A stretch of 32,000 bases of DNA from Bdellovibrionales bacterium. Lineage in GTDB: Bacteria > Bdellovibrionota > Bdellovibrionia > Bdellovibrionales > UBA1609. The translations under genes and the position numbers were made by a program. Shown piece by piece: positions 2,863 through 25,008 of this stretch (the stretch's first letter is position 1; the number at the start of each line of letters is the position of its first letter). Below the pieces are notes generated by a model that was not told the DNA's origin, did no database searches, and saw nothing but the letters and a program-made list of their open reading frames with translations. The stretch lies in the NCBI GenBank assembly GCA_963692945.1, contig OY843585.1, positions 1,290,001-1,322,000 of the forward strand, in the 5' to 3' direction.

Positions 2863-2905
2863 AATAATTTAACACCCTAAAAAATGATTAACTAACAAAA
2901 ACATT

Positions 2906-4369: not shown

Positions 4370-4411
4370 AATAATTTAACACCTAAAAAAAGATTAACTA
4401 ACAAAAACATT

Positions 4412-5281
4412 TTAAAAACTCTCACGACATTTAGAAACAAAAGAAGTTTCATTTTTTTCATTTGCACGAGCCTTGTTTTTAAGAAGTGAAACTACTTTTG
4501 AACGCTTGTAAACACTTGCTTCATGAAGAGCTGTATCGCCATATCCGTTTTTGGCATTCATATCAGCACCTCTTTCAAGAAGAAGTTTAACAACTTCTGA
4601 ATAACCTTCAACACTTGCTTTATGAAGAGCTGTATTGCCATGCTCATCTTTGGCATCAATATCAGCACCTCCTTCAAGAAGAACTTTAATAATTTCTGAA
4701 CGCCCGTAAATAATTGCTTGATGAAAAGATGTATTGCCATGTATGTCTTTAGCATTAATATCAACACCTCTTTCAAGAAGAAGTTTAACAACTTCTGGAT
4801 GCTCGTAAACACTTGCTTTATGAAGAGCTGTATTGCCATATTTGTCTTTGGCATTCATATCAGCACCTCTTTCAAGAAGAAGTTTAACAACTTCTGAGCG
4901 TCCGTAAGCACTTGCTTCATGAAGAGCTGTCTTACCTTCGTTATCTTTGACATGAATATCAGCACCGTATTCAAGAAGAACTTCAACAATTTCTGAACGC
5001 CCGTAAACACTTGCTTTATGAAGAGCTGTATTGCCATATCTTTCTTTGGCATTCATATCAACACCTCTTTCAAGAAGAAGTTTAACAACTTCTGAACGCC
5101 CGTAAGCACTTGCTTCATGAAGAGCTGTCTTTCCATGTCCGTCTTTTATATTAGGATCTACTCCTGCTTTTAAAAGAAGAGATACTTCTTTTGCATTTCC
5201 ATCTCTAGCCGCTACATGAATCTCTTCAGCTAGAACAAAAGAACTAAAAAGAAAAAAAATTGAAATTAAAAAGATTTTCAT
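4412..5281 (-). CDS. Exported ankyrin-repeat protein, family 1 (289 aa, shortest paralog)
   Basis: Same signal peptide (MKIFLISIFFLFSSFVLA|EE), about 7 ANK repeats, tail ANEKNETSFVSKCRESF. Confidence 0.92.
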   Translation of the reverse strand: MKIFLISIFFLFSSFVLAEEIHVAARDGNAKEVSLLLKAGVDPNIKDGHGKTALHEASAYGRSEVVKLLLERGVDMNAKERYGNTALHKASVYGRSEIVEVLLEYGADIHVKDNEGKTALHEASAYGRSEVVKLLLERGADMNAKDKYGNTALHKASVYEHPEVVKLLLERGVDINAKDIHGNTSFHQAIIYGRSEIIKVLLEGGADIDAKDEHGNTALHKASVEGYSEVVKLLLERGADMNAKNGYGDTALHEASVYKRSKVVSLLKNKARANEKNETSFVSKCRESF

Positions 5282-5324
5282 AATAATTTAACACCCTAAA
5301 AAATGATTAACTAACAAAAACATT

Positions 5325-6893: not shown

Positions 6894-6982
6894 AATAATT
6901 TAACACCTAAAAAATGATTAACTAACAAAAAGATTTTCATAATAATTTAACACCTAAAAAAAGATTAACTAACAAAAACATT
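6894..6982 (-). pseudogene. Doubled inter-ANK junction with an orphan start codon: remnant of a deleted family 1 paralog
   Basis: A normal junction is 42-43 bp. Here junction copy 6894-6931 runs into gattttcat (orphan ATG at 6938-6940, reading ATG AAA ATC TTT TT as at every paralog start). A second junction copy follows at 6941-6982. Only the first 4-5 codons of a gene remain. Confidence 0.65.
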
Positions 6983-8548
6983 TTAAAAACTCTCACGACA
7001 TTTAGTAACAGAAGAAGTTTCATTTCTTTCATTTGCACTAGCCAAGTTTTTAAGAAGTTTAACAATTTTTAGATCTCCTTTAACACTTGCTTTATAAAGA
7101 GCTGTATTTCCACCTCTATCTTTAGCATAAATATCAGCACCGTATTCAAGAAGAACTTCAACAACTTCTGGATGGCCTTTATGACTTGCTTGATGAAGAG
7201 ATGTTCTTCCAACGTTATCTTTTGCATTAATATCAGCACCGTATTCAAGAAGAACTTTAACAACTTCTGAACGCCCAAAAAAACTTGCTTGATGAAGAGA
7301 TGTTTTGTCATATTTGTCTTTAGCATGGATATCAGCACCGTGTTCAAGAAGAAATTTAACAACTTCTGAACGCCCGAAAAAACTTGCTTGATGAAGAGCT
7401 GTTTTTCCATCTTTATCTTTTGTATTAATATCAGCACCGTATTCAAGAAAAACTTTAACAACTTCTAAATAACCTTTAAAACTTGCTTGATGAAGAGATG
7501 TTCTTCCATTTTTGTCTTTGGCATTCATATCAGCACCGTGTTTAAGAAAAACTTTAACAACTTCTAAATTCCCTATAAAACTTGCTACATGAAGAGCTGT
7601 GCTTCCATATCCGTCTTTGGCATCAATATCAGCACCTCTTTCAAGAAGAACTTCAACAATTTCTGGATGCCCGAAAAAACTTGCGTTACGAAGAGCTGTA
7701 TTGCCATATTTGTCTTTAGCATGGATATCAACACCGTGTTCAAGAAGAACTTTAACAACTTCTAAATAACCTTTACCACTTGCTTGATGAAGAGCTGTCT
7801 TTCCATATCCATCTTTGGCATGAATATCAGCACCTCCTTCAAGAAAAACTTTAACAACTTCTGGATAACCTTGATAACTTGCTATATGAAGAGCTGTATT
7901 GCCATTTTTGTCTTTGGCATTAATATCAGCACCTCTTTCAAGAAGAACTTTAACAACTTCTGGACGTCTGTAAGCACTTGCTGCATGAAGAGCTGTCTTT
8001 CCATATTTGTCTTTAGCATGGATATCAGCACCGTGTTCAAGAAAAACTTTAACAACTTCTGGATGGCCTTTATGACTTGCTATATGAAGAGCTGTATTGC
8101 CATTTTTGTCTTTGGCATTAATATCAGCATCGTGTTCAAAAAGAACTTCAACAACTTCTAGATGGCCTTTATGACTTGCTTGATGAAGAGCTGTTCTTCC
8201 ATATCCGTCTTTAGCATGGATATCAGCACCGTGTTCAAGAAAAACTTTAACAACTTCTAAATTCCCTCTAAAACTTGCGTTATGAAGAGCTGTTCTTCCG
8301 TCTTCGTCTTTTATATTAGGATCTATTCCTTCTTTAAAAAAAAGAGATGCTGCTTTTGTATTTCCATCTCTAGTCGCTTCATGAATCTCTTCAGCTGTAT
8401 TTCCATCTCTAGCCACTCTATGAATCTCTTCAGCTGTATTTCCATCTTTAGCCGCTCTATGAATCTCTTCAGCTATAGCAAGAGAATTAAAAAGAAAAAC
8501 AATTGAAATTAAAAAAAATCTATCTAAAATGAAAAAAAGAAACTTCAT
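6983..8548 (-). CDS. Exported ankyrin-repeat protein, family 1 (521 aa), first gene of the array
   Basis: ATG at 8546-8548 preceded by AAGGA 8 nt upstream. Divergent longer N-terminus MKFLFFILDRFFLISIVFLFNSLAIA|EE. Triplicated AEEIH..A.DGNT leader (8357-8473), about 13 ANK repeats, tail ..SSVTKCRESF. Confidence 0.92.
   Translation of the reverse strand: MKFLFFILDRFFLISIVFLFNSLAIAEEIHRAAKDGNTAEEIHRVARDGNTAEEIHEATRDGNTKAASLFFKEGIDPNIKDEDGRTALHNASFRGNLEVVKVFLEHGADIHAKDGYGRTALHQASHKGHLEVVEVLFEHDADINAKDKNGNTALHIASHKGHPEVVKVFLEHGADIHAKDKYGKTALHAASAYRRPEVVKVLLERGADINAKDKNGNTALHIASYQGYPEVVKVFLEGGADIHAKDGYGKTALHQASGKGYLEVVKVLLEHGVDIHAKDKYGNTALRNASFFGHPEIVEVLLERGADIDAKDGYGSTALHVASFIGNLEVVKVFLKHGADMNAKDKNGRTSLHQASFKGYLEVVKVFLEYGADINTKDKDGKTALHQASFFGRSEVVKFLLEHGADIHAKDKYDKTSLHQASFFGRSEVVKVLLEYGADINAKDNVGRTSLHQASHKGHPEVVEVLLEYGADIYAKDRGGNTALYKASVKGDLKIVKLLKNLASANERNETSSVTKCRESF
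8357..8473. repeat. 3 x 39-bp in-frame tandem repeat encoding AEEIH..A.DGNT
   Basis: Units 8357-8395, 8396-8434 and 8435-8473. Same unit as at 2695-2811. Confidence 0.9.
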
Positions 8549-8673: not shown

Positions 8674-8823
8674 TTACAGAGAAATTGGTATAAAATTACA
8701 GAGAAATTGGCTTAAATTATAGAGAAACTGGTTTAAATTACAGAGAAATTGTTATAAAATTACAGAGAAATTGGTATAAAATTACAGAGAAATTGTTTTA
8801 AATTATAGAGAAACTGGCTTAAA
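8674..8823. repeat. 7 x 21/22-bp tandem repeat (TTACAGAGAAATTGGTATAAAA family)
   Basis: Units at 8674-8695, 8696-8716, 8717-8737, 8738-8759, 8760-8781, 8782-8802 and 8803-8823. The last unit forms the final 7 codons (FKPVSL-stop) of the mevalonate kinase gene. Confidence 0.95.
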
Positions 8824-11805: not shown

Positions 11806-13089
11806 TTAAGACCAATGATGTGTCTTTCTCCAATGATTTAAATCTTTAACAGCTTGGGTAAAAGACACTCTTTTTGTTTGTTTTAAAGTATTCATCAAAT
11901 GTTTTTCTAACAAAGATTTTTCTGTAGAAGTAGCTCCTGTTTTTAAAACTAAATTTTTGATATGAAGTTTCATATGACCTTCAATGACCCCTTCTGTCAC
12001 TAAAGCTCTTAGGGCTCCTAAATTTTGAACCAACCCTAAAGAACAACAAAGGGAAGCCAACTCTTCCGAATTAGGAAAACCAAGAATCTTTGAACACAAA
12101 TGAGCTGTAGGATGTAAATTTGTAACACCTCCTACAGTTCCTAACATAAAAGGACCTTCCATAACACCATGAAGATCCCTTCCTTGAACTCTCCACTTGG
12201 TTAAAGAAGTGTATCTCCCTTTGCGACTTGCATAAGCGTGCAATCCAGATTCCACAGCTCTCCAATCATTACCTGTAGCAATAAGCAAAGCATCTATACC
12301 ATTTAAGACACCTTTATTATTTGTAGCGGCTCGGTAAGGGTCTATCTCTGCAAATAAAGAGGCTTCTTCTATTTTTTCAATCAATACAGGGTCTTGATTG
12401 CGAACAATCACTTTTGAACGAACCATTCTTTTATCAGCAAGGTTAGATAGAATACACATAGTCACTTCTTCTTGACTTTCTTTCTCAAGAGGTTCTTTTA
12501 GATATTCACAAACTTGATTGATAAGATTGGCTCCCATAGCATCACAAGTTTCTATATGAAGATGTAAGACGGCCATTTTTTTTGAGTCAGGACGATCTAA
12601 AGAGCGAAGCTCCCAAGATTTAAGCCCTCCTCCTCTTTTCACCATAGCAGAAAGGACTTTCTTATTCACATCTTCTTTCCATGCTGGAAAATTCTTTTGA
12701 ATTGCTTTTTGTAAACGATCAAATTTTTTAACTTTAGCTATTTGTATTTGTCCAATAGAAAGACGACTTAAAACTTCTGTTGTTATCTCCCCATTTTCAG
12801 AAATCCAGCGAGCTGTTTTACTAGCAGCTGCAATAATAGAAGTTTCTTCAACAGCAAGAGGCAAAATATAATCCTTATTATTGATAACAAAATTAACAGC
12901 CACACCTAAAGGCATTTCAAAATAACCGAGAGCATTTTCTATAAAGTCTTCAGCCACTTCAGGAGATTTAAGCCCTCCTGATGTAAGATATAAAATATCC
13001 TCTTTATCTAAATAAGATAACTCCTTAAGTTTATTAAGACGAGCCATGTAATTTAATTTTGAAAATCCTTTTAATCTTGTATCTTCCAT
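11806..13089 (-). CDS. mvaA: HMG-CoA reductase, class II
   Basis: EETSIIAAASK, DAMGANLIN, NNKGVLNGIDALLIATGNDWRAVE and GTVGG match class II HMGR signature blocks. The length of 427 aa is typical of soluble bacterial class II enzymes. Confidence 0.9.
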   Translation of the reverse strand: MEDTRLKGFSKLNYMARLNKLKELSYLDKEDILYLTSGGLKSPEVAEDFIENALGYFEMPLGVAVNFVINNKDYILPLAVEETSIIAAASKTARWISENGEITTEVLSRLSIGQIQIAKVKKFDRLQKAIQKNFPAWKEDVNKKVLSAMVKRGGGLKSWELRSLDRPDSKKMAVLHLHIETCDAMGANLINQVCEYLKEPLEKESQEEVTMCILSNLADKRMVRSKVIVRNQDPVLIEKIEEASLFAEIDPYRAATNNKGVLNGIDALLIATGNDWRAVESGLHAYASRKGRYTSLTKWRVQGRDLHGVMEGPFMLGTVGGVTNLHPTAHLCSKILGFPNSEELASLCCSLGLVQNLGALRALVTEGVIEGHMKLHIKNLVLKTGATSTEKSLLEKHLMNTLKQTKRVSFTQAVKDLNHWRKTHHWS

Positions 13090-14105
13090 TTATTTTCTCC
13101 TCTAATTTCTTTTAAATTTTGAGAACCTGTGCAAAATAAACTCACTTTTAATTCGTATTCTAATTTAGTCATGACTCTATCTAACATGTCTTCCCCTTCA
13201 CTTAAAGCCTTTAAAATAGGGCTAGCAAATCCAACCATTTCTGCTCCGAGAGCAAGAGTTTTAGCTGCATCTAAACCTGTTCTAATTCCTCCAGAAGCCC
13301 ACAAATCATAATCTCTTGTCTTTTCCCTTCCATAAATTAAAGAATCAAAAGTATTAACTCCCCAAGATGCAAAGGTTTCCCCAATACCTGAACGAAAATC
13401 TTCTTTTAAAAAACGACTCCCTTCCAATCTTCCCCAATGAGTTCCTCCTAAGCCACTAACATCTACAGCTTTTAAACCTAAACCGGTTAAACGATCTAAA
13501 CTCACTTGAGAAAATCCACAACCTGTTTCTTTTACAATCAAAGGCACTGGCAATTCTTTGACTAATTTTTTGAGTAATTCCAAACCTCCTTTAAATTGAG
13601 GTGTTCCTTCTTTTTGAAGAGATTCTTGAAGAGAGTTTAAATGAATAATCATTCCTTGAGCTTGAAGAGAATCAATAAGCTGGATAAGACTTTTTGTAGA
13701 AATGGTTAAAGCTTGTGAAAGACCTATATTTCCTAAAAGAATTAAGTTGGGACAAGATTTTCGTATCCTCTTCCACTCTTCCGCTTTTACAGGATTTTCT
13801 AATTGCCCCCTTTGAGACCCCACTCCCATAACCCAAGAATGTTTTTCACAAGCTTGTGCCAATTTGAGATTAAACTCCTCCGAATCTTTCCAACCTCCTG
13901 TCATAGAACAAACAAAAAAGGGAGTTTTTAATTTTTGTCCCAAGCAAGTTTGAGAGATAGACACATCTTCAAGATTTAAATTTGGTAAGGCCTCATGTAT
14001 GAGTTGAACCGAATCCAAACCAGTCCCTTTAAGAGATTGAACATTTTCTTTTAAAGAAAGTTCAAAGTGACTTTTTTTTCTCTTTTCAAAAACACTCTCC
14101 TTCAT
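13071..14105 (-). CDS. fni: Isopentenyl-diphosphate delta-isomerase, type 2 (FMN-dependent)
   Basis: N-terminal RKKSHFE, SMTGG, GVGSQR, ETGCGFS, VSGLGGTHWGRLE and ASGGIRTGLDAAKTLALGA match the type 2 IDI TIM-barrel motifs. Overlaps mvaA by 19 bp. Confidence 0.88.
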   Translation of the reverse strand: MKESVFEKRKKSHFELSLKENVQSLKGTGLDSVQLIHEALPNLNLEDVSISQTCLGQKLKTPFFVCSMTGGWKDSEEFNLKLAQACEKHSWVMGVGSQRGQLENPVKAEEWKRIRKSCPNLILLGNIGLSQALTISTKSLIQLIDSLQAQGMIIHLNSLQESLQKEGTPQFKGGLELLKKLVKELPVPLIVKETGCGFSQVSLDRLTGLGLKAVDVSGLGGTHWGRLEGSRFLKEDFRSGIGETFASWGVNTFDSLIYGREKTRDYDLWASGGIRTGLDAAKTLALGAEMVGFASPILKALSEGEDMLDRVMTKLEYELKVSLFCTGSQNLKEIRGENKWKIQD

Positions 14106-14118
14106 GGAAATCTTTTTT

Positions 14119-14463
14119 TTAATGAAGAGCCTTCTCTACGACTTTTGAAAAAGATTTAGGATGTAAGACAGCAAGATCTGCTAATACTTTACGATCTAGA
14201 GGAATTTCTTTTTTACGAATAGCATTCATTAAACAAGAGTAAGTTGTCCCATTAAGACGAGCCGCTCCGTTGATTCTTTGAATCCAAAGACGACGGAAGT
14301 TTCTTTTTTTATTTCTGCGATCTCTATATTGATAGACTAAAGCTCTATCCGATTTTTCAATAGCCACTGAAAAACAACGACTATTTGCTGAATAAAAACC
14401 TTTCGCTCTTTTTAAGATTTTCTTTCTAAATTTTCTGGCTTTAAAACCTCTTTTAACACGCAT
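14119..14463 (-). CDS. rplT: 50S ribosomal protein L20
   Basis: MRVKRGFKARKFRKKILKRAKGF... is a typical L20 N-terminus. GGAG lies 7 nt upstream of the ATG. Only 13 bp separate its stop from the fni start. Confidence 0.95.
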   Translation of the reverse strand: MRVKRGFKARKFRKKILKRAKGFYSANSRCFSVAIEKSDRALVYQYRDRRNKKRNFRRLWIQRINGAARLNGTTYSCLMNAIRKKEIPLDRKVLADLAVLHPKSFSKVVEKALH

Positions 14464-14481
14464 GATTTTACTCCTTTTATT

Positions 14482-14685
14482 CTATCTAGCTACAAGTTGC
14501 CGTTTAACAGCCTTAACATCTGTACTATCAACATAAGTCATCTTCCCAAGTTGACGCTTTCTTTTTGAAGATTTATTGGAAAGGATGTGCCTCAAACCTT
14601 TTTTCTTCCGTTTAACATTGCCACTAGGTTTTAAACGAAATCTCTTTTGAGTCCCTTTATGAGTCTTGGCCTTATTAGCAGCCAT
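14482..14685 (-). CDS. rpmI: 50S ribosomal protein L35
   Basis: MAANKAKTHKGTQKRFRLKPSGNVKRKKKGLRHIL is L35-like. The start was moved to the ATG at 14683-14685 because AGGAGG sits 5 nt upstream. The 13 extra codons of the track ORF (to 14724) would overlap that RBS. Confidence 0.9.
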   Translation of the reverse strand: MAANKAKTHKGTQKRFRLKPSGNVKRKKKGLRHILSNKSSKRKRQLGKMTYVDSTDVKAVKRQLVAR

Positions 14686-14961
14686 ATTTACCTCCTGTGC
14701 AGGTGGCTTAAAGCTCTTGTACACTGCAATCAGTTTCTTTTTCTAAGGATTTCAGAGTTTAAATCACCCCAAAATCTTTTAAGAAAACCATAAAACCAGT
14801 TTCTTAAGGAATAATCAAGTGATTTTTTTTCAAAAAAGATCTTATTTTACTTTGACTATCTTTGAGACGTTTAGGAGGTTCATTAAGTCTATCCTTCTCA
14901 TTATCTAATAAACTTGAGAATCCATTTATTTTTTTAAGCTCACTAACTTCTAAAACTCTAT

Positions 14962-16191
14962 TTACTTTGTCTCTTCACCAACAGATTTATTAAGCTGCGA
15001 TGAATGAAATTCATCTTTTATTATCTTTCTAATTTTTCTTTCTATATAACCTATCTCAGCCTTTTTGGAACCCCACCGTTTTGCAATTTCCTCTTGAGTC
15101 ATGAAAAGGTTTGAACCCCCCCCCTCAACAAATATACGGTTTTTAGCAATATATATATATAAATCTCTATGCTTCTCAACATGTTTTCTCAATTTCATTG
15201 TTTTTAAATGATTCATTGTCCACTCTTCAATAGGCTCTATGTGGCTTCTTCTATTTAATTCTTTATTTAAAACGACATTCTTCTTTTCCTTAGGATATCT
15301 ATTAAGCTGCGATGAATGAAACTCATCTTTTATCATTTCTCTAATTTGTTTTTCTATGTGACTTATTCTCGTTCTACTAAGACCCCACTTTTTTGCCATT
15401 TCTTCCTGTTCAATCAAATCTACACTCTCATCAGCAAATATACGTTTTTCAACAACCTCTAAATATAAATCTCTATTCTTCTTAACATCTTCTCTCATTC
15501 TCATTGTTTTTAAATGATTCATTGTCCAATCCTTAATTTGTCTTAGATAGATCCTATTTAAAAGAACATCTTCTATTCTAGTAGTTTGATTTCTACTTAA
15601 AAGTATCTCTCCTGTTTCTGCATCAGTATAATTTTTAGGGAGAACATGCCTTATTGCTCCAAGGTGTCCTATACGCTTTCTATATCTAATAATATTATTT
15701 TTAGTGCTTTTCCCTATATAGCCAGAAAGTGGAATGAGCATTCCTTTTTCTTTTCTTTCATAGTATTGTTGAATAATAATAGGAAGTTGTTTCAATCCTT
15801 CTTGAAAATAATCATCATAATGACTTCTTGAATGTCTATCATTAGAAAGGTTATAAGCTATTCTAAAAATAAGTTGAAAGTTTGAAAAATACAAAATCAG
15901 ATAAGATCTTTCATCTTTATTTTTCATATAGAATTTTACTATCTGTAATTCCTCTCCTTCTTCTAACCTAGGATAAAGACTTTTAACCTGTTGTACAGAT
16001 CCATATTTAATCATAGTCTTCAGGAATTTTAATGAGTATTTTTTATCTGAAAATTTACTATCCGTCTCAAGAATATTTTGAACTTCTTTTTGTTCTTGCT
16101 TCGCTTGAGTTTTAAAAACACCCTTGCAAGAATCTGCAAAAACATCTATTGAAAATACTGAAAAATAGACAAGAACTAAAAGAATCCTCAT
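14962..16191 (-). CDS. Sigma-70-like protein with N-terminal signal peptide and two region-4-like HTH modules (paralog 1)
   Basis: The track ORF starts at TTG 16215. The ATG at 16189-16191 (MRILLVLVYFSVFSIDVFA|DSCKG) is preferred, with AGGGATGG 9 nt upstream as in paralog 3. Region 2-like: YLILYFSNFQLIFRIAYNL...DDYFQEGLKQL. Two region 4-like modules: RDLYLEVVEKRIF..EEMAKKWGLSRTRISHIEKQIREMI and RDLYIYIAKNRIF..QEEIAKRWGSKKAEIGYIERKIRKII. Confidence 0.65.
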   Translation of the reverse strand: MRILLVLVYFSVFSIDVFADSCKGVFKTQAKQEQKEVQNILETDSKFSDKKYSLKFLKTMIKYGSVQQVKSLYPRLEEGEELQIVKFYMKNKDERSYLILYFSNFQLIFRIAYNLSNDRHSRSHYDDYFQEGLKQLPIIIQQYYERKEKGMLIPLSGYIGKSTKNNIIRYRKRIGHLGAIRHVLPKNYTDAETGEILLSRNQTTRIEDVLLNRIYLRQIKDWTMNHLKTMRMREDVKKNRDLYLEVVEKRIFADESVDLIEQEEMAKKWGLSRTRISHIEKQIREMIKDEFHSSQLNRYPKEKKNVVLNKELNRRSHIEPIEEWTMNHLKTMKLRKHVEKHRDLYIYIAKNRIFVEGGGSNLFMTQEEIAKRWGSKKAEIGYIERKIRKIIKDEFHSSQLNKSVGEETK

Positions 16192-16213
16192 AGAATAGAC
16201 CATCCCTGACACC

Positions 16214-16242
16214 AAACTAACTACAAACTAAAAATCTGTAAA
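16214..16242 (-). promoter_or_regulatory. Candidate sigma-70-type promoter for paralog 1 (TTTACA-17-TAGTTT)
   Basis: The minus strand has TTTACA (16237-16242), a 17-nt spacer and TAGTTT (16214-16219). The same arrangement is conserved in the homologous leader of paralog 3. Confidence 0.3.
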
Positions 16243-16300
16243 TACTAAGTGTAAAATCTTCACTGATTCATTAAGATAAAACCCCTATTTTTAAACACTT

Positions 16301-17563
16301 TTATTTAAAAAATGTAGAAATATCATCACTATCTTTTCTTAACTTATCAGACTTAATTTTACTTTCTATCATTCTAATAATATTGAGCTCTATCCTAGCA
16401 ACTTTAGAAATAGAAGAATTAAATCTTTCTGCAATTTTTCTAAACACAACCCTATTCTCTTTTAAACTAACAAAAACACGTCCTTCTGCGACAGCAATCC
16501 ATAAATCTCTATTCGTGCCTTTTTGCACTTGCCCTTTTTTCAACCTATTTAATGTCCAATCTTTAATCTCCTTTAAATATTTCTGATCTATAAATAAACT
16601 CTTTTTTAAAAAAGAAACATTTTTATCTTTTATGTCTTCTTTTTTTTGATCTGGCTTTTGAGTAAACTCATCTATTATCCTATCAGTTATTTGAGATTCT
16701 ATTTGTTTCACCCTCTGTGTTGTAATCTTAAATTTTTTTGCAATATTTTTTAGAGTCTCAGGCTCTCTATTTGTGAACATACGGTTTTCAGCAACATACC
16801 GCCACAATTTCCTACTTTTATCTTCTTTCTTTTTTATTATATTATTGAATGTCCAATCCTTAATTTCCTTCAAATAGATGTCATCAGTAACTTCTTTTTC
16901 TATATTAGATTTGGAACGAAATGATTCACTCTCTGTAGTAAATTCTTTTTCTACATCTTGTAATTCAACATTTTTTTGAGACACATGATTTCTCACCAAT
17001 ACATTTTTTTTCATATGTTTCTTAAGACGCAAATCAAGATTCAAACTTGCATAATTCAAAAAGGAGTTATTTTTAACAAAGTCATACTCTTTAATGGCAT
17101 TGGAAAGTATCAAGAGACCTTCTTGAAAATAATCATCATAATTCATCCCTTCACCCTCATGATATCTGATATTTTTATAACGATGAGCCATTTTAGCAAC
17201 AAGCTTGAAATGTGAAAAATACAAAACCCAGTAAGATCTTTCATCTTTAGTCTTTTGATAGTGTTTTAGCATCTGTAATTGATCTTCTTTATCCAAAATA
17301 GAGTAAGTATTCATAATACTTGATATAGAAAGAATCTGACTTGCGTTTTTGAGATAAGCTAGTGAATATTTTTTATCTAAAAATTTACTATCCGTCTCAA
17401 GAATATTTTGAACTTTTTGCTCTTGTTTAACTTGATCCTTTTGAACTTCTTTGTGTTCTCGCTTCTCTTGATCTTTAAAAACACCTTTACAAGAATGGCT
17501 AGAAAAAGCATTCCAAGATAAAAATACAAAAACAAAAAAAATGAATCTACTTATCATAAACAT
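16301..17563 (-). CDS. Sigma-70-like protein with N-terminal signal peptide and two region-4-like HTH modules (paralog 2)
   Basis: Start moved to the ATG at 17561-17563 (MFMISRFIFFVFVFLSWNAFS|SHSCKG), one nt after the TGA of paralog 3 (TGAaATG). Region 2-like: YWVLYFSHFKLVAKMAHRY...YDDYFQEGLLILSNAIKEYDFVKNNSFLNYA. Region 4-like modules: LKNIAKKFKITTQRVKQIESQITDRI and FRKIAERFNSSISKVARIELNIIRMI. Confidence 0.65.
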   Translation of the reverse strand: MFMISRFIFFVFVFLSWNAFSSHSCKGVFKDQEKREHKEVQKDQVKQEQKVQNILETDSKFLDKKYSLAYLKNASQILSISSIMNTYSILDKEDQLQMLKHYQKTKDERSYWVLYFSHFKLVAKMAHRYKNIRYHEGEGMNYDDYFQEGLLILSNAIKEYDFVKNNSFLNYASLNLDLRLKKHMKKNVLVRNHVSQKNVELQDVEKEFTTESESFRSKSNIEKEVTDDIYLKEIKDWTFNNIIKKKEDKSRKLWRYVAENRMFTNREPETLKNIAKKFKITTQRVKQIESQITDRIIDEFTQKPDQKKEDIKDKNVSFLKKSLFIDQKYLKEIKDWTLNRLKKGQVQKGTNRDLWIAVAEGRVFVSLKENRVVFRKIAERFNSSISKVARIELNIIRMIESKIKSDKLRKDSDDISTFFK

Positions 17564-17564
17564 T

Positions 17565-18614
17565 TCATATTTCTTTAAATGAAAATCTGGATAGTATTTT
17601 ATTTCTAAGGTTTTTTTCATGAGCCGTTACAGCTTGGCGAGATATATTGAATTCCTTTGCAATATCTTTTGAAGTTTTTAGGTTTCCATCCATAAATATA
17701 CGAGTATTCAAAATTTCTAACAATACATCTTTACTTTTGGTTCTATTTATTTCTCTCAAAGCAAAGTCATAAACTTTTCTTAGTTTTTCACGACTTTCTC
17801 TTACTTTATACATATCCTCTTTATGGCTAAAAGTATCTAAAAGTTTCTCTGTGCCCTCAACTCGTACCCCCATAATCTGATCAATTTGTTTTTGACCAAT
17901 AAAAAGACTATCATCATAATTATACTCTGAAAGTTTTTTTATTGTATTTTTAACAAGAACTTTATTGTATATAGGATGTTTTTTTATAAATTGTGTCAAC
18001 CAATCTTCTGTTCCATATTCTTTAGGGTTTATTTTCCTTTCATCAATTAAAAGCTTGATTAGAGCTGATATTCTTGTATCTTTTATTCTAATCATACCTT
18101 CTCTATCTTTTCTATACACCATATTTTCATTTTTAATGGCTTGTATTGCATAAGTGGCAAAAGTATTTCCTGAAGAAATATCAAAGTTTTCAATAGATCT
18201 AGACAATGCAATTACACCCGTTTGAAAATAGTCATTAGATACATCATAATCGTTACTTTCAAATTTATACTGATAAAATTTATACTTATAAATAAGTCTT
18301 AAATTTGAAAATAGTAGAATATAAAAAGATCTTTTATCTCTATGTTGACTATAATGTTTGAAGAGCTGTAATTGTTTTTCTGAATCTAGTGCAGGATATT
18401 TATTTGCGATTTTTTTAAAAGGCAAACTTGCACTCATTAAAGAGAGAAGCGAATATTTTTTATCCAAAAAGGGTTCTGTTTTAAAGATATCTGAAACTTC
18501 TTGAACTTTTTTTTGTTCTTTCTTCTCTTGATTTTTAAAAACCTCTTTACAAGAATCTGCAAAAACATCTACTGAAAATACTGAAAAATAAACAAAAATT
18601 ACAAGAATCCTCAT
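17565..18614 (-). CDS. Sigma-70-like protein with N-terminal signal peptide, single region-4-like module (paralog 3)
   Basis: The track ORF starts at GTG 18626. The ATG at 18612-18614 is preferred, with GGGGTG 9 nt upstream (MRILVIFVYFSVFSVDVFA|DSCKE). This paralog has the clearest region 2 match: ILLFSNLRLIYKY...NDYFQTGVIALSRSIENFDISSGNTFATYAIQAIKN, against canonical NLRLV..IA..Y / DLIQEG.IGL..A..KFD...G..FSTYA...IR. Region 4.2-like: SKDIAKEFNISRQAVTAHEKNLRNKI. Confidence 0.7.
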   Translation of the reverse strand: MRILVIFVYFSVFSVDVFADSCKEVFKNQEKKEQKKVQEVSDIFKTEPFLDKKYSLLSLMSASLPFKKIANKYPALDSEKQLQLFKHYSQHRDKRSFYILLFSNLRLIYKYKFYQYKFESNDYDVSNDYFQTGVIALSRSIENFDISSGNTFATYAIQAIKNENMVYRKDREGMIRIKDTRISALIKLLIDERKINPKEYGTEDWLTQFIKKHPIYNKVLVKNTIKKLSEYNYDDSLFIGQKQIDQIMGVRVEGTEKLLDTFSHKEDMYKVRESREKLRKVYDFALREINRTKSKDVLLEILNTRIFMDGNLKTSKDIAKEFNISRQAVTAHEKNLRNKILSRFSFKEI

Positions 18615-18637
18615 AGAATAGACCACCCCTTGACACT

Positions 18638-18666
18638 AAATTAACTACAAACTAAAAACTTGTAAA
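18638..18666 (-). promoter_or_regulatory. Candidate sigma-70-type promoter for paralogs 3 and 2 (TTTACA-17-TAATTT)
   Basis: The minus strand has TTTACA (18661-18666), a 17-nt spacer and TAATTT (18638-18643). It lies in a roughly 105-bp leader (18615-18724) that is about 85-90% identical by eye to 16192-16300. Confidence 0.3.
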
Positions 18667-18815
18667 TGCTAAGTGTAAAATCTTCACTGATTCATTGAGA
18701 TAAAATCTAAGGTTTTGAACACTTTATATTCAGAAAGTGTAAAAATTTTACTTTAGAAATGACCTTGAAGATTTGAAAAAGATTCTCTTAAAAACTTTGA
18801 ATAGATTTTTTTAAA

Positions 18816-19571
18816 TTACTTTTGAGATTTTATGATTTCTACAGTAGGAGTGTTTTTCACTTGAACTGTGGGAGTAGAACGGGAAGAACTTTTAACACTA
18901 GAAGAAGGTTTAACACCAGAAGAAGGCTTAACACCAGAAGAAGGCTTAACACCAGAAGAAGGCTTAACACCAGAAGAAGGCTTAACACCAGAAGAAGGCT
19001 TAACACCAGAAGAAGGTTTAACACCAGAAGTGCTTGATGAATTAGCCGCAAAAATAGTAAAAAGACTTCGTCTTTCCATTTTTGCTGGCATCTCAATAAA
19101 AGCTATATCAGAGATTTTTTCTTCCACTTTCTGCAACAATTTAAACCCTAACTCTTTATGTGCTATTTCTCTTCCTGAAAAAAGAACATTGATTTTAACT
19201 TTATGACCTTGAGATAAAAACTCTCGTGCTTTTTGAAGCTTTATATTAATATCATTTTCATCTGTTCTAGGTCTTAACTGAAGTTCTTTAATAAGAACTT
19301 TGAATTGTTTCTTCCGATTTTGTTTTTCTTTCTTTTTATTTTCAAATTTCCATTTTCCATAATCCATAATTTTACAAGTGGGTGGATTAGAACTAGAAGA
19401 CATTTCTACTAGATCTAAAGATCTATCTTTTGCATAAGTTATAGCCTCTTGCAAAGGCATAACACCTAGCATGGAACCCTCATTATCTATAAGACGAACT
19501 TCATGAGCTCTAATTCTTTCATTAACTCTATGCTTATCTCTTCTTCTACGATCTTTAAAATATCTTTTAAT
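18816..19571 (-). CDS. infC: Translation initiation factor IF-3, ATT start, with C-terminal hexapeptide-repeat extension
   Basis: The track ORF (start 19472) lacks the conserved N-terminus. Extending the frame gives IKRYFKDRRRRDKHRVNERIRAHEVRLIDNEGSMLGV..., where NERIRA.EVRLID..G..LGV is the IF-3 N-domain signature. There is no ATG, GTG or TTG between the in-frame thrS stop (19590-19592) and this motif. ATT at 19569-19571 is preceded by AAGAGGA with an 8-nt spacer. Confidence 0.85.
   Translation of the reverse strand: MKRYFKDRRRRDKHRVNERIRAHEVRLIDNEGSMLGVMPLQEAITYAKDRSLDLVEMSSSSNPPTCKIMDYGKWKFENKKKEKQNRKKQFKVLIKELQLRPRTDENDINIKLQKAREFLSQGHKVKINVLFSGREIAHKELGFKLLQKVEEKISDIAFIEMPAKMERRSLFTIFAANSSSTSGVKPSSGVKPSSGVKPSSGVKPSSGVKPSSGVKPSSGVKPSSSVKSSSRSTPTVQVKNTPTVEIIKSQK
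18901..19026. repeat. 7 x 18-bp perfect or near-perfect tandem repeat (gaagaaggcttaacacca) inside the infC 3' end
   Basis: Units start at 18901, 18919, 18937, 18955, 18973, 18991 and 19009, with partial units on each flank. On the minus strand they encode (SGVKPS)n. Confidence 0.95.
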
Positions 19572-19589
19572 AACAGTTTCCTCTTGAAT

Positions 19590-21527
19590 TTAGATAAGTA
19601 AGGATTTTAGAGACTTGCTTTCTATCTCTTTCAATACAGATTCTTTAAAGTGAGTTAAAGAAATGGAATTAAGGACTGTTCCTTCACGAAGCCGAACAGA
19701 TATAGACTCTGATTTGATCTCATTTTTACCAATAATTATCATATAAGGTATTTGTGCCTGTTGAGATTGTCTGATCTTGTAAGATAATTTTTCACTTCTT
19801 AAATCTATTTTGCAAATAATTCCGTTTTGTGCAAGTTCTTTTTGAATTTCTTGAGAAAATTTATTTTCTTTATCCGTTAAAGGTAAAACTATAACTTGTA
19901 TAGGACACAACCATAAAGGCAGCCTTCCCCTTTCATGCTCAAGATAAACTCCTATAAATCGCTCTAAAGAACCTAAAATAGCTCTATGAACCATAACTGG
20001 CCTTTTTTCTTTATCCTTTTCATTGACATAAGTTAAATCAAAAACTTCTGGCAGATTAAAATCACATTGAAAAGTTCCTAATTGCCATAACCGATCAAAA
20101 GAATCTCTCACATTTATATCTAATTTAGGACCATAAAAAGCTCCATCACCTGGATTTTCTGTAAAAGGTATTTTTAAAACATTAAGAGACTCCCTTAAAG
20201 CTTCTTCCGCTTGATCCCATAATTTATCATCGCCCATACGATTTTTGGGTCTGGTTGATAAACAAATTTCATAATCATTCAAACCTAAAATTTGATAAAT
20301 ATCTTCCAACATTTTTACACCGTTTTGTATCTCTTTAGACAATTGATCTAAACGACAGAAAATATGAGCATCATCTTGACAAAAACTTCTAACACGAGTT
20401 AACCCCTGCAATGCCCCTGTAAGTTCATTCCTATGTAGGCGACCAAAGTCAGCCACTCTCCAAGGCAAGTCTCTATAAGATCTTTTATCTTTTTTGTAGA
20501 GAATACAATGACCGGGACAATTCATAGGTTTAAGATAACTTGGCCGTTCCTCATTAGAGATTTCATACATATTTTCTTTAAAATGGAGTGTATGACCTGA
20601 TTTCTTAAAAAGTTCTTCAGCATAAATTTGAGGAGATATCACCTCTTCATAATCATACTCTTTATATTTTTCTCTTAAAAAATTTTGAAGACGATTGTAG
20701 ATAAATGTCCCTAAAGAAGTGAAAAAAGGACTTCCAGGGGAAAGTTCGCTAAACCAAAAAAGATCTAATTTTTTACCAAGACTTCTATGGTCGTTTTCTT
20801 TGGCTTCCTCTCTTTTTTTCAAAAAAGATTTCAAGTCCTTAGAAGTATGAAAAGCAGTTCCATAAATTCTTTGAAGCTGTTTGTTTTTAGAATCCCCTCG
20901 CCAATAAGCTCCTGATAAAAATAAAATTTTTATAGCACCAATTTGACCAAGATGCTGCACATGAGGTCCTCTACAAAGATCTAACCAAGCTCCTTGTTTA
21001 TAAATACTCACCTCTTTTTCTTCAAGATCTTTAATGATTTCTTGTTTGAGAGTTTCCCCTTTATTTCCAAAATATTTAATTGCTTTATCTTGAGACCAAA
21101 CCTCTTTCACAATCTCATACTTTTGTTTCAGTAATTTCTCCATTTCTTTTTCTATTTTTTGAAGGTCTTCTGGTGTGAACTTTTTATCTGTATCAAAATC
21201 ATAATAAAACCCATCTTCAATAACAGGACCTATAGTCACTTTTACATCTGGCCATAAATTTTGAACAGCTTGGGCTAAGACATGAGCGGCAGAATGCCTA
21301 ATCACTTCCAAAGATTTTTTAGAAGGAAGAGCTACAATTTCCACTTCATCTTTATCTTTTAAAACAGACCTTATATCTCTAACTTCTTTTTCTCCCTTTA
21401 AAACAAAACCTACAGCATCACGAGCTAACCGACTTCCAATACTTTGAGCAAGATCTAAACCTGTTGGAGGAGATTGAAATTTTTTTTCACTACCATCTGG
21501 AAGTTTTATTTTACAACTCATAGACAC
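19590..21527 (-). CDS. thrS: Threonyl-tRNA synthetase
   Basis: 645 aa. The N-terminal KIKLPDGSEKKF is TGS-domain-like. HSAAHVLAQAV is the editing-domain motif. Class II core blocks FGRLHRNE, FCQDDAHIF and HRAILGSLERFIG are present. The track start at 21527 is GTG; the ATG at 21519-21521 is an alternative. Confidence 0.95.
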   Translation of the reverse strand: MSMSCKIKLPDGSEKKFQSPPTGLDLAQSIGSRLARDAVGFVLKGEKEVRDIRSVLKDKDEVEIVALPSKKSLEVIRHSAAHVLAQAVQNLWPDVKVTIGPVIEDGFYYDFDTDKKFTPEDLQKIEKEMEKLLKQKYEIVKEVWSQDKAIKYFGNKGETLKQEIIKDLEEKEVSIYKQGAWLDLCRGPHVQHLGQIGAIKILFLSGAYWRGDSKNKQLQRIYGTAFHTSKDLKSFLKKREEAKENDHRSLGKKLDLFWFSELSPGSPFFTSLGTFIYNRLQNFLREKYKEYDYEEVISPQIYAEELFKKSGHTLHFKENMYEISNEERPSYLKPMNCPGHCILYKKDKRSYRDLPWRVADFGRLHRNELTGALQGLTRVRSFCQDDAHIFCRLDQLSKEIQNGVKMLEDIYQILGLNDYEICLSTRPKNRMGDDKLWDQAEEALRESLNVLKIPFTENPGDGAFYGPKLDINVRDSFDRLWQLGTFQCDFNLPEVFDLTYVNEKDKEKRPVMVHRAILGSLERFIGVYLEHERGRLPLWLCPIQVIVLPLTDKENKFSQEIQKELAQNGIICKIDLRSEKLSYKIRQSQQAQIPYMIIIGKNEIKSESISVRLREGTVLNSISLTHFKESVLKEIESKSLKSLLI

Positions 21528-21591
21528 TTATACTAGCGAAAGGATTATAAAAGGACAACTATTTATTAAATTTGATTTCATTTTTAAGCAC

Positions 21592-22173
21592 TTAGACAAT
21601 GAGATAGTGATTTAAAGTTTGATTGACTTCTTGAAAGAGAGATTGTCTCTCTTTAGATTCTATTTGTATTTTAGAATGATCTTCTAAAGTCTGATTGACT
21701 ATAGAGGTGTAAGAAAATTTCTGAGGAAGAACTCCTTGTAGAAAGAGAATTTTTATTTGAAAACATAATTTTAAATTTTCCAAAGAATCTGTTTTCTCAG
21801 CTTGAACAAGGGCATTGCCTAAAAGATGAAAAATCTCTTTAGAATCATTAAACCCTTCCTGACTGATATCTCCTACAACTTTTAAAAAATAAAAAGCAAG
21901 TTCTAATCTATCATAATCTTTTCTTAAACCTAAAAAAGTATTTATAAACCAAGCCTGTCTCAGTTTATGAAGAGAGTTTTTGGCAGGACGATACTCTACT
22001 CCAATAAAAGAACTTGGCTCTAACACTCCCCCTACAAATCGTTTTTTACTTTTTAAAGCTCCTTTAGCAATAAAACTCATCTGATTACCATTTTCACTTA
22101 AGCCTTTAAGAATCAAATCCGATTCAGAAAACGGAGTAGATTTTAAAACAATAAGTCGCGTTCTTTCTAACAT
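21592..22173 (-). CDS. recO: DNA repair protein RecO (short form)
   Basis: The N-terminal OB-fold pattern LIVLKSTPFSESDLILKGLSENGNQMSFIAKGALKSKKRFVGGVLEP resembles RecO (..VL....GE.D.I......G.....AKGAR...SRF...LEP). Start moved to the ATG at 22171-22173 because AGAGGA lies 8 nt upstream. The track start at 22191 is GTG. Confidence 0.7.
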   Translation of the reverse strand: MLERTRLIVLKSTPFSESDLILKGLSENGNQMSFIAKGALKSKKRFVGGVLEPSSFIGVEYRPAKNSLHKLRQAWFINTFLGLRKDYDRLELAFYFLKVVGDISQEGFNDSKEIFHLLGNALVQAEKTDSLENLKLCFQIKILFLQGVLPQKFSYTSIVNQTLEDHSKIQIESKERQSLFQEVNQTLNHYLIV

Positions 22174-23508: not shown

Positions 23509-24732
23509 TTATTTAAAACTCTTAGCACAAGCAGATTGCTGTTTATTTTTTGAACTTTTCTTATTAGTAGAAACTTCCTCTAAATAACTAATTACCTCTT
23601 TGTTCTTGCTTTGTTTTGCAACATCAATAGCCGTTCCTCCCCATTCATTTTTAATATCCGTTTTCGCACCTTTTGCTACAAGAAGTTGTATAATCTCTAA
23701 AGATTCTTCATTAGCTGCCACATGAAGAGCTGTATCTCCATATGTATTTTTAATATTCATTTTTGCACTCTTTTCTAACAGGACTTTTACAATATCTAAC
23801 CGTTCTTGATGAACGGCGTAATGAAGAGCTGTCTCTCCAGTTTCTTTATCTTTAATATCCATATTCACATCCTTTTCTAAAAGGATTTTTATAATATTTA
23901 GATGCTCCCGCCTAATTGCTACATGAAGAACCGTCTCTCCATTTTCATTTAGAGTATCCACTTTCGCACCTTCAGCCAAAAGAGCTTCTACAATCTCTAA
24001 AGATCCTTTATCAACGGCCACATGAAGAGGACTATCTCCATATACACTCTCAACATTCACTTCTGCACCATTTTCTAACAGAACTTTCACAGTATCTAAA
24101 CTTCCTTGACGAATGACATAATGAAGAGATGTTTCTCCACCTTCATTTAGAATATTCACTTTCGCACCTTCAGCCAAAAGAACTTTTACAATATCTAAAC
24201 GCTCTTGACGAATGGCATAATGAAGAGCTGTTTCTCCTTCTTCATTTTTAATATTCACTTTCGCACCTTCAGCCAAAAGAACTTTTACAGCTTTTAAAAA
24301 TCCTTTATCAACGGCTCTATGAAGAGGTGTTTCTCTCCATTCATTTTTAGTATTCACTTCTGCACCATTTTCTAACAGAACTTTTACAATATCTAAACGC
24401 TTTTCACTAATGGCAGAATAAAGAGCTGTATTTCCATCTCTATCGGGAATATTCATTTTTGCACCTTTAGATAGAAGAATTTTTACAATTTCTAAAGATT
24501 TGTGTGTAACTGCTATATGAAGAGCTGTTTTTCCATCTTTATTTAAAAGATTTACTTCTACATCTTCAGATAAAAGGCTTGTTATGGCTTTTAAATCACC
24601 CACCCAAACAGCTTCATGAAGAGTATTTAATGGAGTGCTTTTATTGGCCATTTTAGACTGAGAAGAAACTTGGAAAACAAAACTTCCAAAAAGAATAATA
24701 TTTAAAATAAATAGTGATTTTTTAATTCTCAT
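23509..24732 (-). CDS. Exported ankyrin-repeat protein, family 2 (paralog a)
   Basis: Start set at the ATG 24730-24732 (MRIKKSLFILNIILFGSFVFQVSS|QSKMANK) by homology with paralog b. About 10 ANK repeats (G.TALH.A......IVK.LL..GAK.NI.N). Tail ..QQSACAKSFK. Confidence 0.88.
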   Translation of the reverse strand: MRIKKSLFILNIILFGSFVFQVSSQSKMANKSTPLNTLHEAVWVGDLKAITSLLSEDVEVNLLNKDGKTALHIAVTHKSLEIVKILLSKGAKMNIPDRDGNTALYSAISEKRLDIVKVLLENGAEVNTKNEWRETPLHRAVDKGFLKAVKVLLAEGAKVNIKNEEGETALHYAIRQERLDIVKVLLAEGAKVNILNEGGETSLHYVIRQGSLDTVKVLLENGAEVNVESVYGDSPLHVAVDKGSLEIVEALLAEGAKVDTLNENGETVLHVAIRREHLNIIKILLEKDVNMDIKDKETGETALHYAVHQERLDIVKVLLEKSAKMNIKNTYGDTALHVAANEESLEIIQLLVAKGAKTDIKNEWGGTAIDVAKQSKNKEVISYLEEVSTNKKSSKNKQQSACAKSFK

Positions 24733-24794
24733 AGCACCCACTTTACTGGCTATAGTGCTGTTCAATCTATAAAAAAATAAAGAATATGTCAAAA

Positions 24795-24937
24795 ACAAAA
24801 CTCTCGTTCAAAAAAGCATTTTTAACTCTTATTTTAATGAGCTTTTCATCGCAAGAGAGACGCTCTTCAAATCTCATTAAAATAAGAGTTGCTTAATAGG
24901 TTTATGTTTGAACTAGAGAAAACCTACTGGTTTTCGC
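24795..24937 (-). repeat. Structured repeat element, about 145 bp (left copy, inverted relative to 26957-27102)
   Basis: It is the reverse complement of 26957-27102 at roughly 90% identity by eye. It contains a perfect 18-bp stem (24824-24841 with 24873-24890, 31-nt loop) and ends in the 18-bp palindrome copy. Confidence 0.85.
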
Positions 24938-24982
24938 ATGAAGGGTTTTGTTCTTCAACCTCAAAAAGTAAAAAAGGTATTC

Positions 24983-25008
24983 CTAGAGAAAACCTACTGG
25001 TTTTCGCA
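24983..25008. repeat. Solo copy of the palindromic motif CTAGAGAAAACCTACTGGTTTTCGCA
   Basis: Identical to 24913-24938. Core is GAAAACC-N4-GGTTTTC. Confidence 0.85.

Follow-up and report, generated by a model that had tools for sequence, protein, structure and literature searches.

Within a 32,000-nucleotide stretch from a Bdellovibrionales bacterium (contig OY843585.1, positions 1,290,001 to 1,322,000 of the forward strand; hereafter the window, with a G+C content of 32%), three tandem genes encode sigma-70 family proteins that begin with predicted signal peptides. According to the textbooks, sigma factors are strictly cytoplasmic subunits of RNA polymerase, and the curated models of Pfam, NCBIfam, PHROGs and PADLOC describe none with a signal peptide. 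The explanation that we favour, though tentatively, is that the three proteins, referred to here as P1, P2 and P3, belong to a Sec-exported, sigma-derived family of effector-like character, which would act on bacterial-type RNA polymerase in another cell. A preliminary description, made from the letters of the stretch, had already noticed the combination of sigma-like regions with export signals, and our analysis follows it up. The three open reading frames (ORFs) are as follows:

17565-18614, minus strand: P3, 349 amino acids (aa), starting MRILVIF; predicted signal peptide, cysteine motif, sigma2, sigma3 and one sigma4 (residues 266-345).
16301-17563, minus strand: P2, 420 aa from MFMISRF; predicted signal peptide, cysteine motif, sigma2, no sigma3, two sigma4 (220-301 and 325-402).
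14962-16191, minus strand: P1, 409 aa, starting MRILLVL; predicted signal peptide, cysteine motif, degenerate sigma2, no sigma3, two sigma4 (205-292 and 310-396).

The pairwise protein identity among the three is 31-42%. The start codon of P2 lies 4 nt past the stop codon of P3, and P3 and P1 each have an upstream region of their own; in the public gene call P2 starts at 17620, 19 codons earlier, and reaches 439 aa.

P1, P2 and P3 are sigma-70 family proteins, for which the similarity of single sequences is real but weak and becomes decisive with the family profile and the predicted folds. P3 matched Pfam Sigma70_r2 at 25.0 bits (cut-off 24) and TIGR02937 at 44.4 bits (cut-off 42.9), and its C-terminal helix-turn-helix (HTH) matched GerE at 21.6 bits in Pfam; P2 matched Sigma70_r4 at 24.5 bits (cut-off 24.1), with Sigma70_r2 under the cut-off at 20.7 bits; and P1 stayed under all cut-offs (TIGR02937 26.8 bits, E-value 3e-6; Sigma70_r4 15.7 bits; HTH_3 23.3 bits). 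When sigma4 copies were counted with a hidden Markov model (HMM) of the module, one was found in P3 and two each in P2 and P1. A profile of 18 family members, P1-P3 included, matched the PDB chains of RpoD, SigA, RpoS and RpoH at E-values of 1e-25 to 1e-20, with an alignment that begins at region 2.1, extends through the whole of region 4.2 and takes in almost all of RpoH. In the AlphaFold2 model of P3 (mean predicted local distance difference test, pLDDT, 78) sigma2 and sigma4 are confident, and the model of P2 (pLDDT 75) has a confident sigma2 at about residues 50-190 and two HTH domains, with disordered linkers between; the top Foldseek matches of both in PDB are all sigma-32, sigma-S or SigA with probability 1.00, the first for P3 being sigma-32 (8hkc_E). 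Thus the strings resembling region 2 in the preliminary description are borne out by HMM scores, by the profile against PDB and by the folds, and its C-terminal HTH modules of region 4 type by Sigma70_r4 in P2 and by the module HMM in all three; the profile searches it had proposed put P3 above the cut-off for Sigma70_r2 and P2 above that for Sigma70_r4, and the structural searches it had proposed, run for P3 and P2, returned sigma factors on top.

The conservation within the family is concentrated in the functional parts of a sigma factor. The most conserved positions lie in the core-binding helix of region 2.2 (D-D-Y-F-Q-E-G-L-I-A-L-L), the tyrosine of region 2.3 and the HTH of region 4.2 type, where a helix SGERIRQIK resembles TRERIRQIE. 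In the profile consensus, ydDyfQegliaLl, the D, Q and L of region 2.2 and the Y of region 2.3 are strongly conserved, and the corresponding D128, Q131, L137 and Y155 (P3 numbering) are nearly invariant among relatives just 21-35% identical, which is indirect evidence that P1-P3 may bind the RNA polymerase core and direct promoter-specific initiation. None of the three reached the equivalog cut-offs of RpoH, SigK, SigE, SigG or FliA. The identification as RpoH was rejected at 40.2 bits for P3 and 31.5 bits for P2 (TIGR02392, cut-off 323), and no RpoH-box-like sequence was seen on inspection of the P3 translation by eye; the identification as a pro-sigma equivalog was likewise rejected, with SigK at 45 bits against a cut-off of 252 and SigE at 29 against 339, and no gene for a processing protease like SpoIVFB or SpoIIGA is present in the window or in six related loci. 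By these scores the three proteins are a separate branch of the sigma-70 family.

A HMMER search run exhaustively over 1.84 billion representatives yielded 2,287 sigma-like proteins, among which the closest set (P0005-P0015, P0017, P0022-24, P0027, P0034, P0095 and P0120, joined by P0152 and P0153 from a word-index search) made it possible to examine the N-termini across the family. Signal peptides were called by explicit rules on charge and on n-, h- and c-regions (basic n-region, uncharged h-region of about 8-18 aa, small residues at -3 and -1) together with the family comparison. The N-termini of P1-P3 have one basic residue, then 11-13 uncharged hydrophobic residues (Kyte-Doolittle value 2.6-2.75), and then VFA before D or AFS before S. 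In n/h/c order they read MR, ILVIFVYFSVFSV and DVFA before D in P3; M(F)MISR, FIFFVFVFLSW and NAFS before S in P2; and MR, ILLVLVYFSVFSI and DVFA before D in P1. The corresponding features are:

18558-18614, minus strand: P3 predicted signal peptide MRILVIFVYFSVFSVDVFA, with predicted cleavage after VFA; n-region +1, h-region of 13 aa with Kyte-Doolittle value 2.7, C-flank net -2.
17477-17563, minus strand: P2 leader MFMISRFIFFVFVFLSWNAFS followed by SHS-CKGVF, called by the n/h/c rules.
16114-16191, minus strand: P1 leader MRILLVLVYFSVFSIDVFA followed by DS-CKGVF, called by the n/h/c rules.
18537-18551, minus strand: P3 cysteine motif C-K-E-V-F (residues 22-26), with the only cysteine of the protein, invariant in the 18-sequence alignment.

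The same design was found in 21 of 26 family representatives: their n-regions carry a charge of +1 to +4, except for a net 0 in P0024, their h-regions span 8-18 aa (11-16 in most), and their C-flanks have a net charge of at most +1, the orientation that translocates the protein body. Two apparent exceptions were checked in the DNA: the gene call of P0009 is truncated and its ORF extends upstream to MKIKIYYLSFVLFLISFKMFPQVCEEPF, and in P0019 a frameshift splits the signal peptide. The predicted cleavage sites are uniform across the family (AFS, SFS, VFA, IFA, AFA, GFS). No N-terminal hydrophobic segment was found in any of 126 ordinary sigma factors taken from the same HMMER match list, nor in 13 housekeeping proteins of the window except for the Rossmann N-terminus of Ugd. 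The N-termini of P1-P3 are therefore predicted to fit signal peptides of the Sec/signal peptidase I type, just as the preliminary description had parsed them into basic n-region, hydrophobic core and small-x-small site. It had also held that ribosome-binding sites support start codons which include the hydrophobic segment. We accept these start codons because the N-terminal segment is conserved across the family, and not from Shine-Dalgarno evidence, which is weaker than had been claimed: the motif for P3 and P1 is only AAGGGG- or CAGGGA-like, about 11 nt upstream. Moreover, P3 has no in-frame methionine between the hydrophobic segment and the invariant cysteine, the first downstream one being residue 60.

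The invariant cysteine is placed 2 to about 50 residues past the hydrophobic core, in a motif C-[KEQR]-x-[VIPST]-F whose variants include CKEVF, CKGVF, CQRIF, CEAPF and CLKTF. A lipoprotein processed by signal peptidase II was considered and rejected, as the pattern [LVI][ASTVI][GAS]C is absent, the residues before the cysteine are ADS, SHS, GET, AND, SQE, ANP or SND, and the spacing from the h-region is variable; at the same loci there are other proteins with ordinary lipoboxes (LTSC, LTNC, LASC). Past the leader cysteine, the sigma-like family has one cysteine in 6,221 residues, compared with 0.74% in ordinary sigma factors and 1.29% in the housekeeping proteins of the window (Fisher p about 1e-17 and 1e-21), and the ankyrin-repeat (ANK) proteins of the window have 10 in 3,513 residues, 8 of them within a terminal motif. 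Such a depletion would be expected of proteins that reside in or cross an oxidising compartment with one reserved thiol, and is hard to explain for a cytoplasmic sigma factor.

The leader is not confined to sigma-like proteins, since signal peptide and C-x-x-x-F are also found together on unrelated proteins of related Bdellovibrionota genomes. At locus L009 it heads three ANK proteins, one Sel1 protein and one Sel1/TPR protein (for example 557-1792 and 14013-16609, both minus strand); at L004 a trypsin-like protease fused to eight Sel1 repeats (3349-4962, minus strand); at L003 a pyridoxal phosphate-dependent decarboxylase and a cytidine/MafB19-type deaminase (11872-13290, plus strand, and 14199-14762, minus strand); and in three clusters fusions of sigma2 with RNase H (for example L002 8001-8828, plus strand). 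The deaminase and the decarboxylase were not accepted as the housekeeping TadA and LysA, with scores of 70 against a cut-off of 150 and 144 against 298. The C-x-x-x-F motif occurs in 16 of 38 signal-peptide-like ORFs of these loci; among background windows it occurs in 20 of 461, and in windows taken from other parts of the same proteins in 0 of 95. These counts include paralogs and so overstate independence; at least eight unrelated cargo types are represented. By its distribution, the combination of signal peptide and C-x-x-x-F looks like a lineage-specific export tag.

About 25 divergent relatives were found, and every one whose N-terminus is intact has the signal peptide of P1-P3 and the invariant cysteine, which is the outcome of the survey of related genomes that the preliminary description had called for. 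In the word-index protein search P3 alone matched only itself and the family profile mostly drew ordinary sigma factors; the scan of genome contigs (species representatives, which do not include the genome of the window) gave a single match, an unrelated sigma factor of Coriobacteriia; and scans of metagenome and viral contigs with family patterns gave no relatives. A phage origin was rejected, there being no relatives among the viral contigs and only a weak PHROG match to a sigma family; membership of an anti-phage defence system (PADLOC/NCBIfam) was rejected as well, the match to MzaA (17-18 bits, E-value 2-3e-4) covering only a generic sigma2 stretch. A literature search, of incomplete coverage, on secreted, exported or membrane-bound sigma factors found nothing relevant, and a large survey of extracytoplasmic function (ECF) sigma factors mentions N-terminal extensions as pro-sequences only. 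The statement of the preliminary description that no described family has this architecture agrees with both the HMM libraries and the literature. As for the lineage of the window, the best named relatives of its ThrS are from metagenome-assembled genomes labelled Oligoflexia (68% identity), Bdellovibrionaceae/Pseudobdellovibrionaceae (64% and 57%) and Bdellovibrionales (64% and 57%); many other relatives lie on contigs of 1.2-2.4 Mb, and the contig of the window itself is 1.56 Mb. The signal-peptide-bearing sigma family thus appears to be previously undescribed and specific to a small-genome lineage of Bdellovibrionota.

The genomic behaviour of the family is also unlike that of its neighbours. 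The three genes occupy a slot between two borders:

18816-19472, minus strand: infC (initiation factor IF3), from its ORF and from synteny with L005, L008 and L009; upstream border of the variable slot.
14119-14724, minus strand: rpmI-rplT; downstream border of the slot.

Upstream of the sigma-like block lie thrS and recO, and downstream a mevalonate-pathway cluster. The content of the slot varies: it holds three sigma-like genes in the window, one (P0007) in L005 with synteny otherwise identical, two lipoproteins together with Sel1, Sel1/TPR and ANK leader proteins in L009, and unrelated content in L008 and L010. When the window is compared with L005, protein identity is 67-90% in the flanks, but only 24-30% for the sigma-like proteins in syntenic position. 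Elsewhere, P0005 belongs to an island of at least 10 signal-peptide genes in L003. The number of sigma4 modules ranges from one to at least four per member, and sigma3 is lost in P1 and P2. At L006 (6083-9842) a tandem sigma-like pair of 616 and 613 aa was observed, each with three sigma4 modules and with a linker of about 46 residues rich in Ser, Glu and Pro between signal peptide and cysteine motif. In this pair the ratio of nonsynonymous to synonymous substitution rates (dN/dS) is 0.3-0.4 in the leader and sigma2-3 and 0.7-0.8 in the sigma4 array, and the 5' end is homogenised (dS 0.075 vs 0.55). A similar homogenisation is seen between P3 and P1, whose aligned 5' regions are 86% identical column for column, compared with 31% for the whole proteins:

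18499-18724, minus strand: P3 5' block, about 110 nt upstream and the first 115 nt or so of coding sequence, near-identical to the P1 block.
16076-16300, minus strand: P1 5' block, a homogenised copy of the P3 block.
15116-15124, minus strand: G9 homopolymer, P1 codons 356-358, just before the second HTH; possible slippage tract.

The G9 run is the sole G or C run of at least 7 in the 32-kb window, and runs of at least 9 appeared in 13 of 2000 shuffles; a slip of +1 or -1 would shorten P1 to 363 or 378 aa, and thus the run may serve in phase variation. With their rapid evolution, changing copy number and shuffled domains, the genes of the family resemble those of effectors in their genetics. 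It was further observed that at two unrelated loci (L002 6212-7351 and L004 5941-7050) a gene for an AAA_14/DUF4143 ATPase stands upstream of a family member, some 0.7-1 kb away, which may be coincidence.

The ANK proteins of the window are linked to the sigma-like proteins by the same kind of motif. Eight complete ANK ORFs with signal-like N-termini (MKIFLISIFFLFSSLVIAEE and others) lie on the minus strand at 207-8548, 23509-24798 and 25071-26390, a count that replaces the nine exported ANK proteins of the preliminary description. All eight carry a cysteine motif at the extreme C-terminus (KCRESF, SACAKSFK and SNCAKTFCRNCES, each ending at the stop codon, and CAKTF), and six of the eight have no other cysteine. 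Possibly the C-x-x-x-F element of the sigma-like leaders recurs in them at the other end of the protein. Prenylation at a CaaX box was rejected by inspection, the cysteine being 4-5 residues from the end and not 3. The connection drawn earlier between the sigma-like and the ANK proteins is strengthened, both by the seemingly common single-cysteine C-x-x-x-F motif and by the ANK and Sel1 genes that occupy the same infC-rpmI slot in a sister genome. Two repeats were observed around these genes: a hairpin-like one of 20 nt, GAAAACCTACTGGTTTTCGC, in eight copies (six exact) at 24918-25007 (plus strand) and 26507-26976 (minus strand), intergenic around two ANK genes, of which no copy is expected by chance and which is possibly of the repetitive extragenic palindromic (REP) or miniature inverted-repeat transposable element (MITE) kind; and a tandem one of 22 nt, TTACAGAGAAATTGGTATAAAA, in about 6.7 copies at 8674-8817, directly upstream of the six-gene ANK cluster.

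As for the remaining sequence around the sigma-like block, its non-coding flanks are long, namely 18615-18815 (189-201 nt after infC) and 14725-14961 (237 nt before rpmI). An Rfam scan of 13000-22000 at E-values up to 1 found no RNA family, hence no recognised element of the L20-leader type, and a scan for sigma-70 promoters and terminators gave a result no better than shuffled sequence. No promoter motif common to the sigma-like and ANK genes was found. In the C-terminal tail of IF3 the unit SSGVKP is repeated about eight times, owing to a tandem repeat of 18 nt at 18892-19030 within infC, and the L005 ortholog has another Ser-rich tail.

The mechanism that we infer would proceed as follows. 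The sigma-like proteins would be made as Sec precursors and cut by signal peptidase I at the small-Phe-small site, and the mature protein would leave the cytoplasm with a short N-terminus bearing one essential cysteine in C-[KEQR]-x-[VIPST]-F. Because the leader is common to them, the sigma-like, ankyrin, Sel1/TPR, protease, deaminase and decarboxylase proteins would probably follow one export route. In Bdellovibrio bacteriovorus a Sec signal peptide alone suffices to release a reporter into the medium (PMC12622784). After passage of the outer membrane and delivery into a target cell, for which a prey bacterium, a co-resident bacterium or an organelle are the candidates, the protein would dock on a bacterial-type RNA polymerase, at its beta-prime clamp helices and beta flap, in competition with the sigma factor already there, and would jam or redirect transcription; extra sigma4 modules and sigma2-RNase H fusions would then be variants of a polymerase-targeting module plus payload. 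Polymerase docking is considered the most likely activity since the core-binding helix of sigma2 and the HTH of sigma4 are under purifying selection, and the target is thought to be a bacterial-type polymerase outside the producer since the polymerase-binding helix is the most conserved part. A bolder form, that secreted sigma proteins and sigma2-RNase H fusions are weapons or reprogramming tools which replace the resident sigma factor, with the leader as address tag for a new route of effector export that ankyrin, Sel1, deaminase and protease cargo would also use, is in our opinion possible but doubtful.

Several observations weigh against export to another cell. A sigma factor working in its own cell would account for the conserved sigma determinants just as well, and the charge bias across the hydrophobic segment is small for P3 and P1 (+1 vs 0 to -2). 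Region 2.3-2.4 is degenerate in P1 and P2. No secretion system, target cell or host emerged from the analysis, which covered 32 kb of the genome; the ANK and Sel1 expansions suggest a eukaryotic host, which would have no sigma-dependent polymerase outside plastids. Finally, the one position in the thrS-infC-rpmI-rplT cluster kept in two genomes could suit a regulator.

The most serious alternative, though on balance an unlikely one, is an alternative sigma factor of the own cell, whose hydrophobic N-terminus regulates it through targeting to the membrane or to Sec, where the sigma factor is held, degraded or exported. Its cytoplasmic activity would rise only when the targeting or export machinery can take up no more of it or when the leader has been removed, in the design of a pro-sigma factor or of a secretion monitor. 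Models for this exist: pro-sigma-K and pro-sigma-E have N-terminal pro-sequences that associate with the membrane, the signal recognition particle brings sigma-32 there, and FlgM, SecM and VemP couple regulation to export. The conserved determinants of regions 2.2, 2.3 and 4.2, the best NCBIfam matches to SigK, SigG and RpoH, and the infC-rpmI position kept in two genomes are all in line with such a regulator, and a monitor of an export route would be expected to have its leader in common with the cargo. However, the charge distribution and the small-x-small sites predict that the sigma body is translocated and not retained, and the near-total depletion of cysteine is unexplained in a cytoplasmic protein. 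Moreover, an identity of 24-30% where the neighbours keep 67-90% is unusual for a regulator, as are tandem multiplication, RNase H fusions and sigma4 arrays too numerous for a single polymerase to accommodate them all; neither a protease nor an anti-sigma partner adjoins any member, and the promoter motif in common with the ANK genes is missing. The uncleaved membrane anchor that the preliminary description had offered as an alternative is accordingly weakened by the comparative evidence, yet not refuted.

Less likely still is that the proteins are exported into a eukaryotic host and serve there as nucleomodulins that bind DNA, or in another role, with HTH modules that have no RNA polymerase partner. 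The co-location and the common leader with ANK and Sel1 repeat proteins, a kind typically found in bacteria associated with eukaryotes, point in this direction, as does the origin of the closest relatives from an assembly of more than 169,000 contigs, possibly a host genome, and the multiplied HTH modules could bind DNA alone. But it is the polymerase-binding helix of sigma2 that holds the best-conserved positions, and the recognition helices of the HTH vary; no nuclear localisation signal or eukaryotic domain was detected in the Pfam scan, most members of the phylum prey on bacteria, and sigma2 fused to RNase H is most readily understood at a transcription complex. The earlier interpretation therefore stands in part: export is favoured by the signal peptide, the small-x-small sites with their charge, the shared leader and the cysteine depletion, and the nucleomodulin idea has found no support. 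With its core-binding helix conserved, region 2.2 suggests that the partner is a bacterial-type RNA polymerase.

It is improbable, moreover, that the exported proteins keep the sigma fold without any sigma activity, as a scaffold for an unrelated extracytoplasmic function. The degeneration of region 2.3-2.4 and the missing sigma3 in P1 and P2, their low single-sequence HMM scores, and the high dN/dS in the C-terminal arrays would suit a mere scaffold; they have to be set against four nearly invariant residues (D128, Q131, L137 and Y155) across relatives of 21-35% identity, a family profile that aligns end to end with working sigma factors, and confident sigma2 and sigma4 domains in the models of both P3 and P2. 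Scarcely credible, finally, is an artefact in which wrong start codons or chance composition (the Shine-Dalgarno support is weak, and AT-rich genomes are rich in F, I, L and K) make ordinary cytoplasmic sigma factors look exported, for the segment and the cysteine motif are kept in about 25 divergent relatives called by independent pipelines, P3 offers no methionine before residue 60, and the segment is missing from the 126 ordinary sigma factors and from all the housekeeping proteins but Ugd.

What makes Sec-exported, polymerase-directed proteins worth considering is that this family keeps the polymerase- and DNA-binding parts of a sigma factor, yet is built, conserved and diversified like a secreted effector. 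If export is true, a universal polymerase-docking module would have been turned into an inter-cellular tool, giving a new natural class of proteins directed at RNA polymerase, of interest for antibacterial design; if delivery is also true, it would be the first takeover of transcription by a delivered sigma protein and not by a phage gene. Should the proteins stay in the producer, they would be the first sigma factors with Sec-gated activity. In addition, the sequence rule of signal peptide, one cysteine and C-x-x-x-F finds the putative exported repertoire of an uncultured branch of Bdellovibrionota, which under this rule includes deaminase, decarboxylase, protease and RNase H cargo.

Among known systems, the group 3 sigma factors (RpoH; SigK, SigG, SigE) are the best HMM, sequence-to-PDB and fold matches of the window proteins, and they are alike in the sigma1.2-2-3-4 order, in the case of P3, in the region 2.2 helix and in the region 4.2 HTH. 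Unlike them, the window proteins have a signal peptide of cleavable type and a cysteine motif before region 1.2, P1 and P2 lack sigma3, and the family has one to at least four copies of sigma4, almost no cysteine and a very fast evolution. Pro-sigma-K and pro-sigma-E of Bacillus subtilis, and pro-BldN of Streptomyces (for BldN see PMC7826278), are alike in having an N-terminal extension that is membrane-associated and/or removed by proteolysis. Their pro-sequences, however, keep the sigma factor on the cytoplasmic side and need SpoIVFB or SpoIIGA, whereas the extension of the window proteins has the n/h/c layout and a small-x-small site, is common to repeat proteins that are exported by the same prediction, and has no such protease gene adjoining. 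PhyR of Alphaproteobacteria (PMC4598750) likewise shows a sigma-like fold that has been put to a use other than recognising promoters. It differs in being cytoplasmic, fused to a receiver domain, directed at an anti-sigma factor and devoid of a signal peptide, and the relationship is one of fold only.

Parallels for the proposed mode of action come from effectors and phages. Sec-dependent effectors (SDEs) from bacteria lacking injection systems are known in phytoplasmas (SAP11, SAP54) and Liberibacter; in these, as proposed here, nothing but an ordinary Sec signal peptide can be recognised as a signal for export and the domains would act inside another cell, but the cargo of the window is a sigma factor, with the conserved C-x-x-x-F and the single-cysteine rule in addition. 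Phages, on the other hand, have sigma factors and appropriators of their own, such as gp55 and AsiA of T4 and gp28 of SPO1, and the likeness is that a foreign protein of sigma type takes over the RNA polymerase of another organism, as we propose for the family described here. The difference is that a phage delivers the gene and has the protein made in its victim, whereas here the protein itself would need to be delivered.

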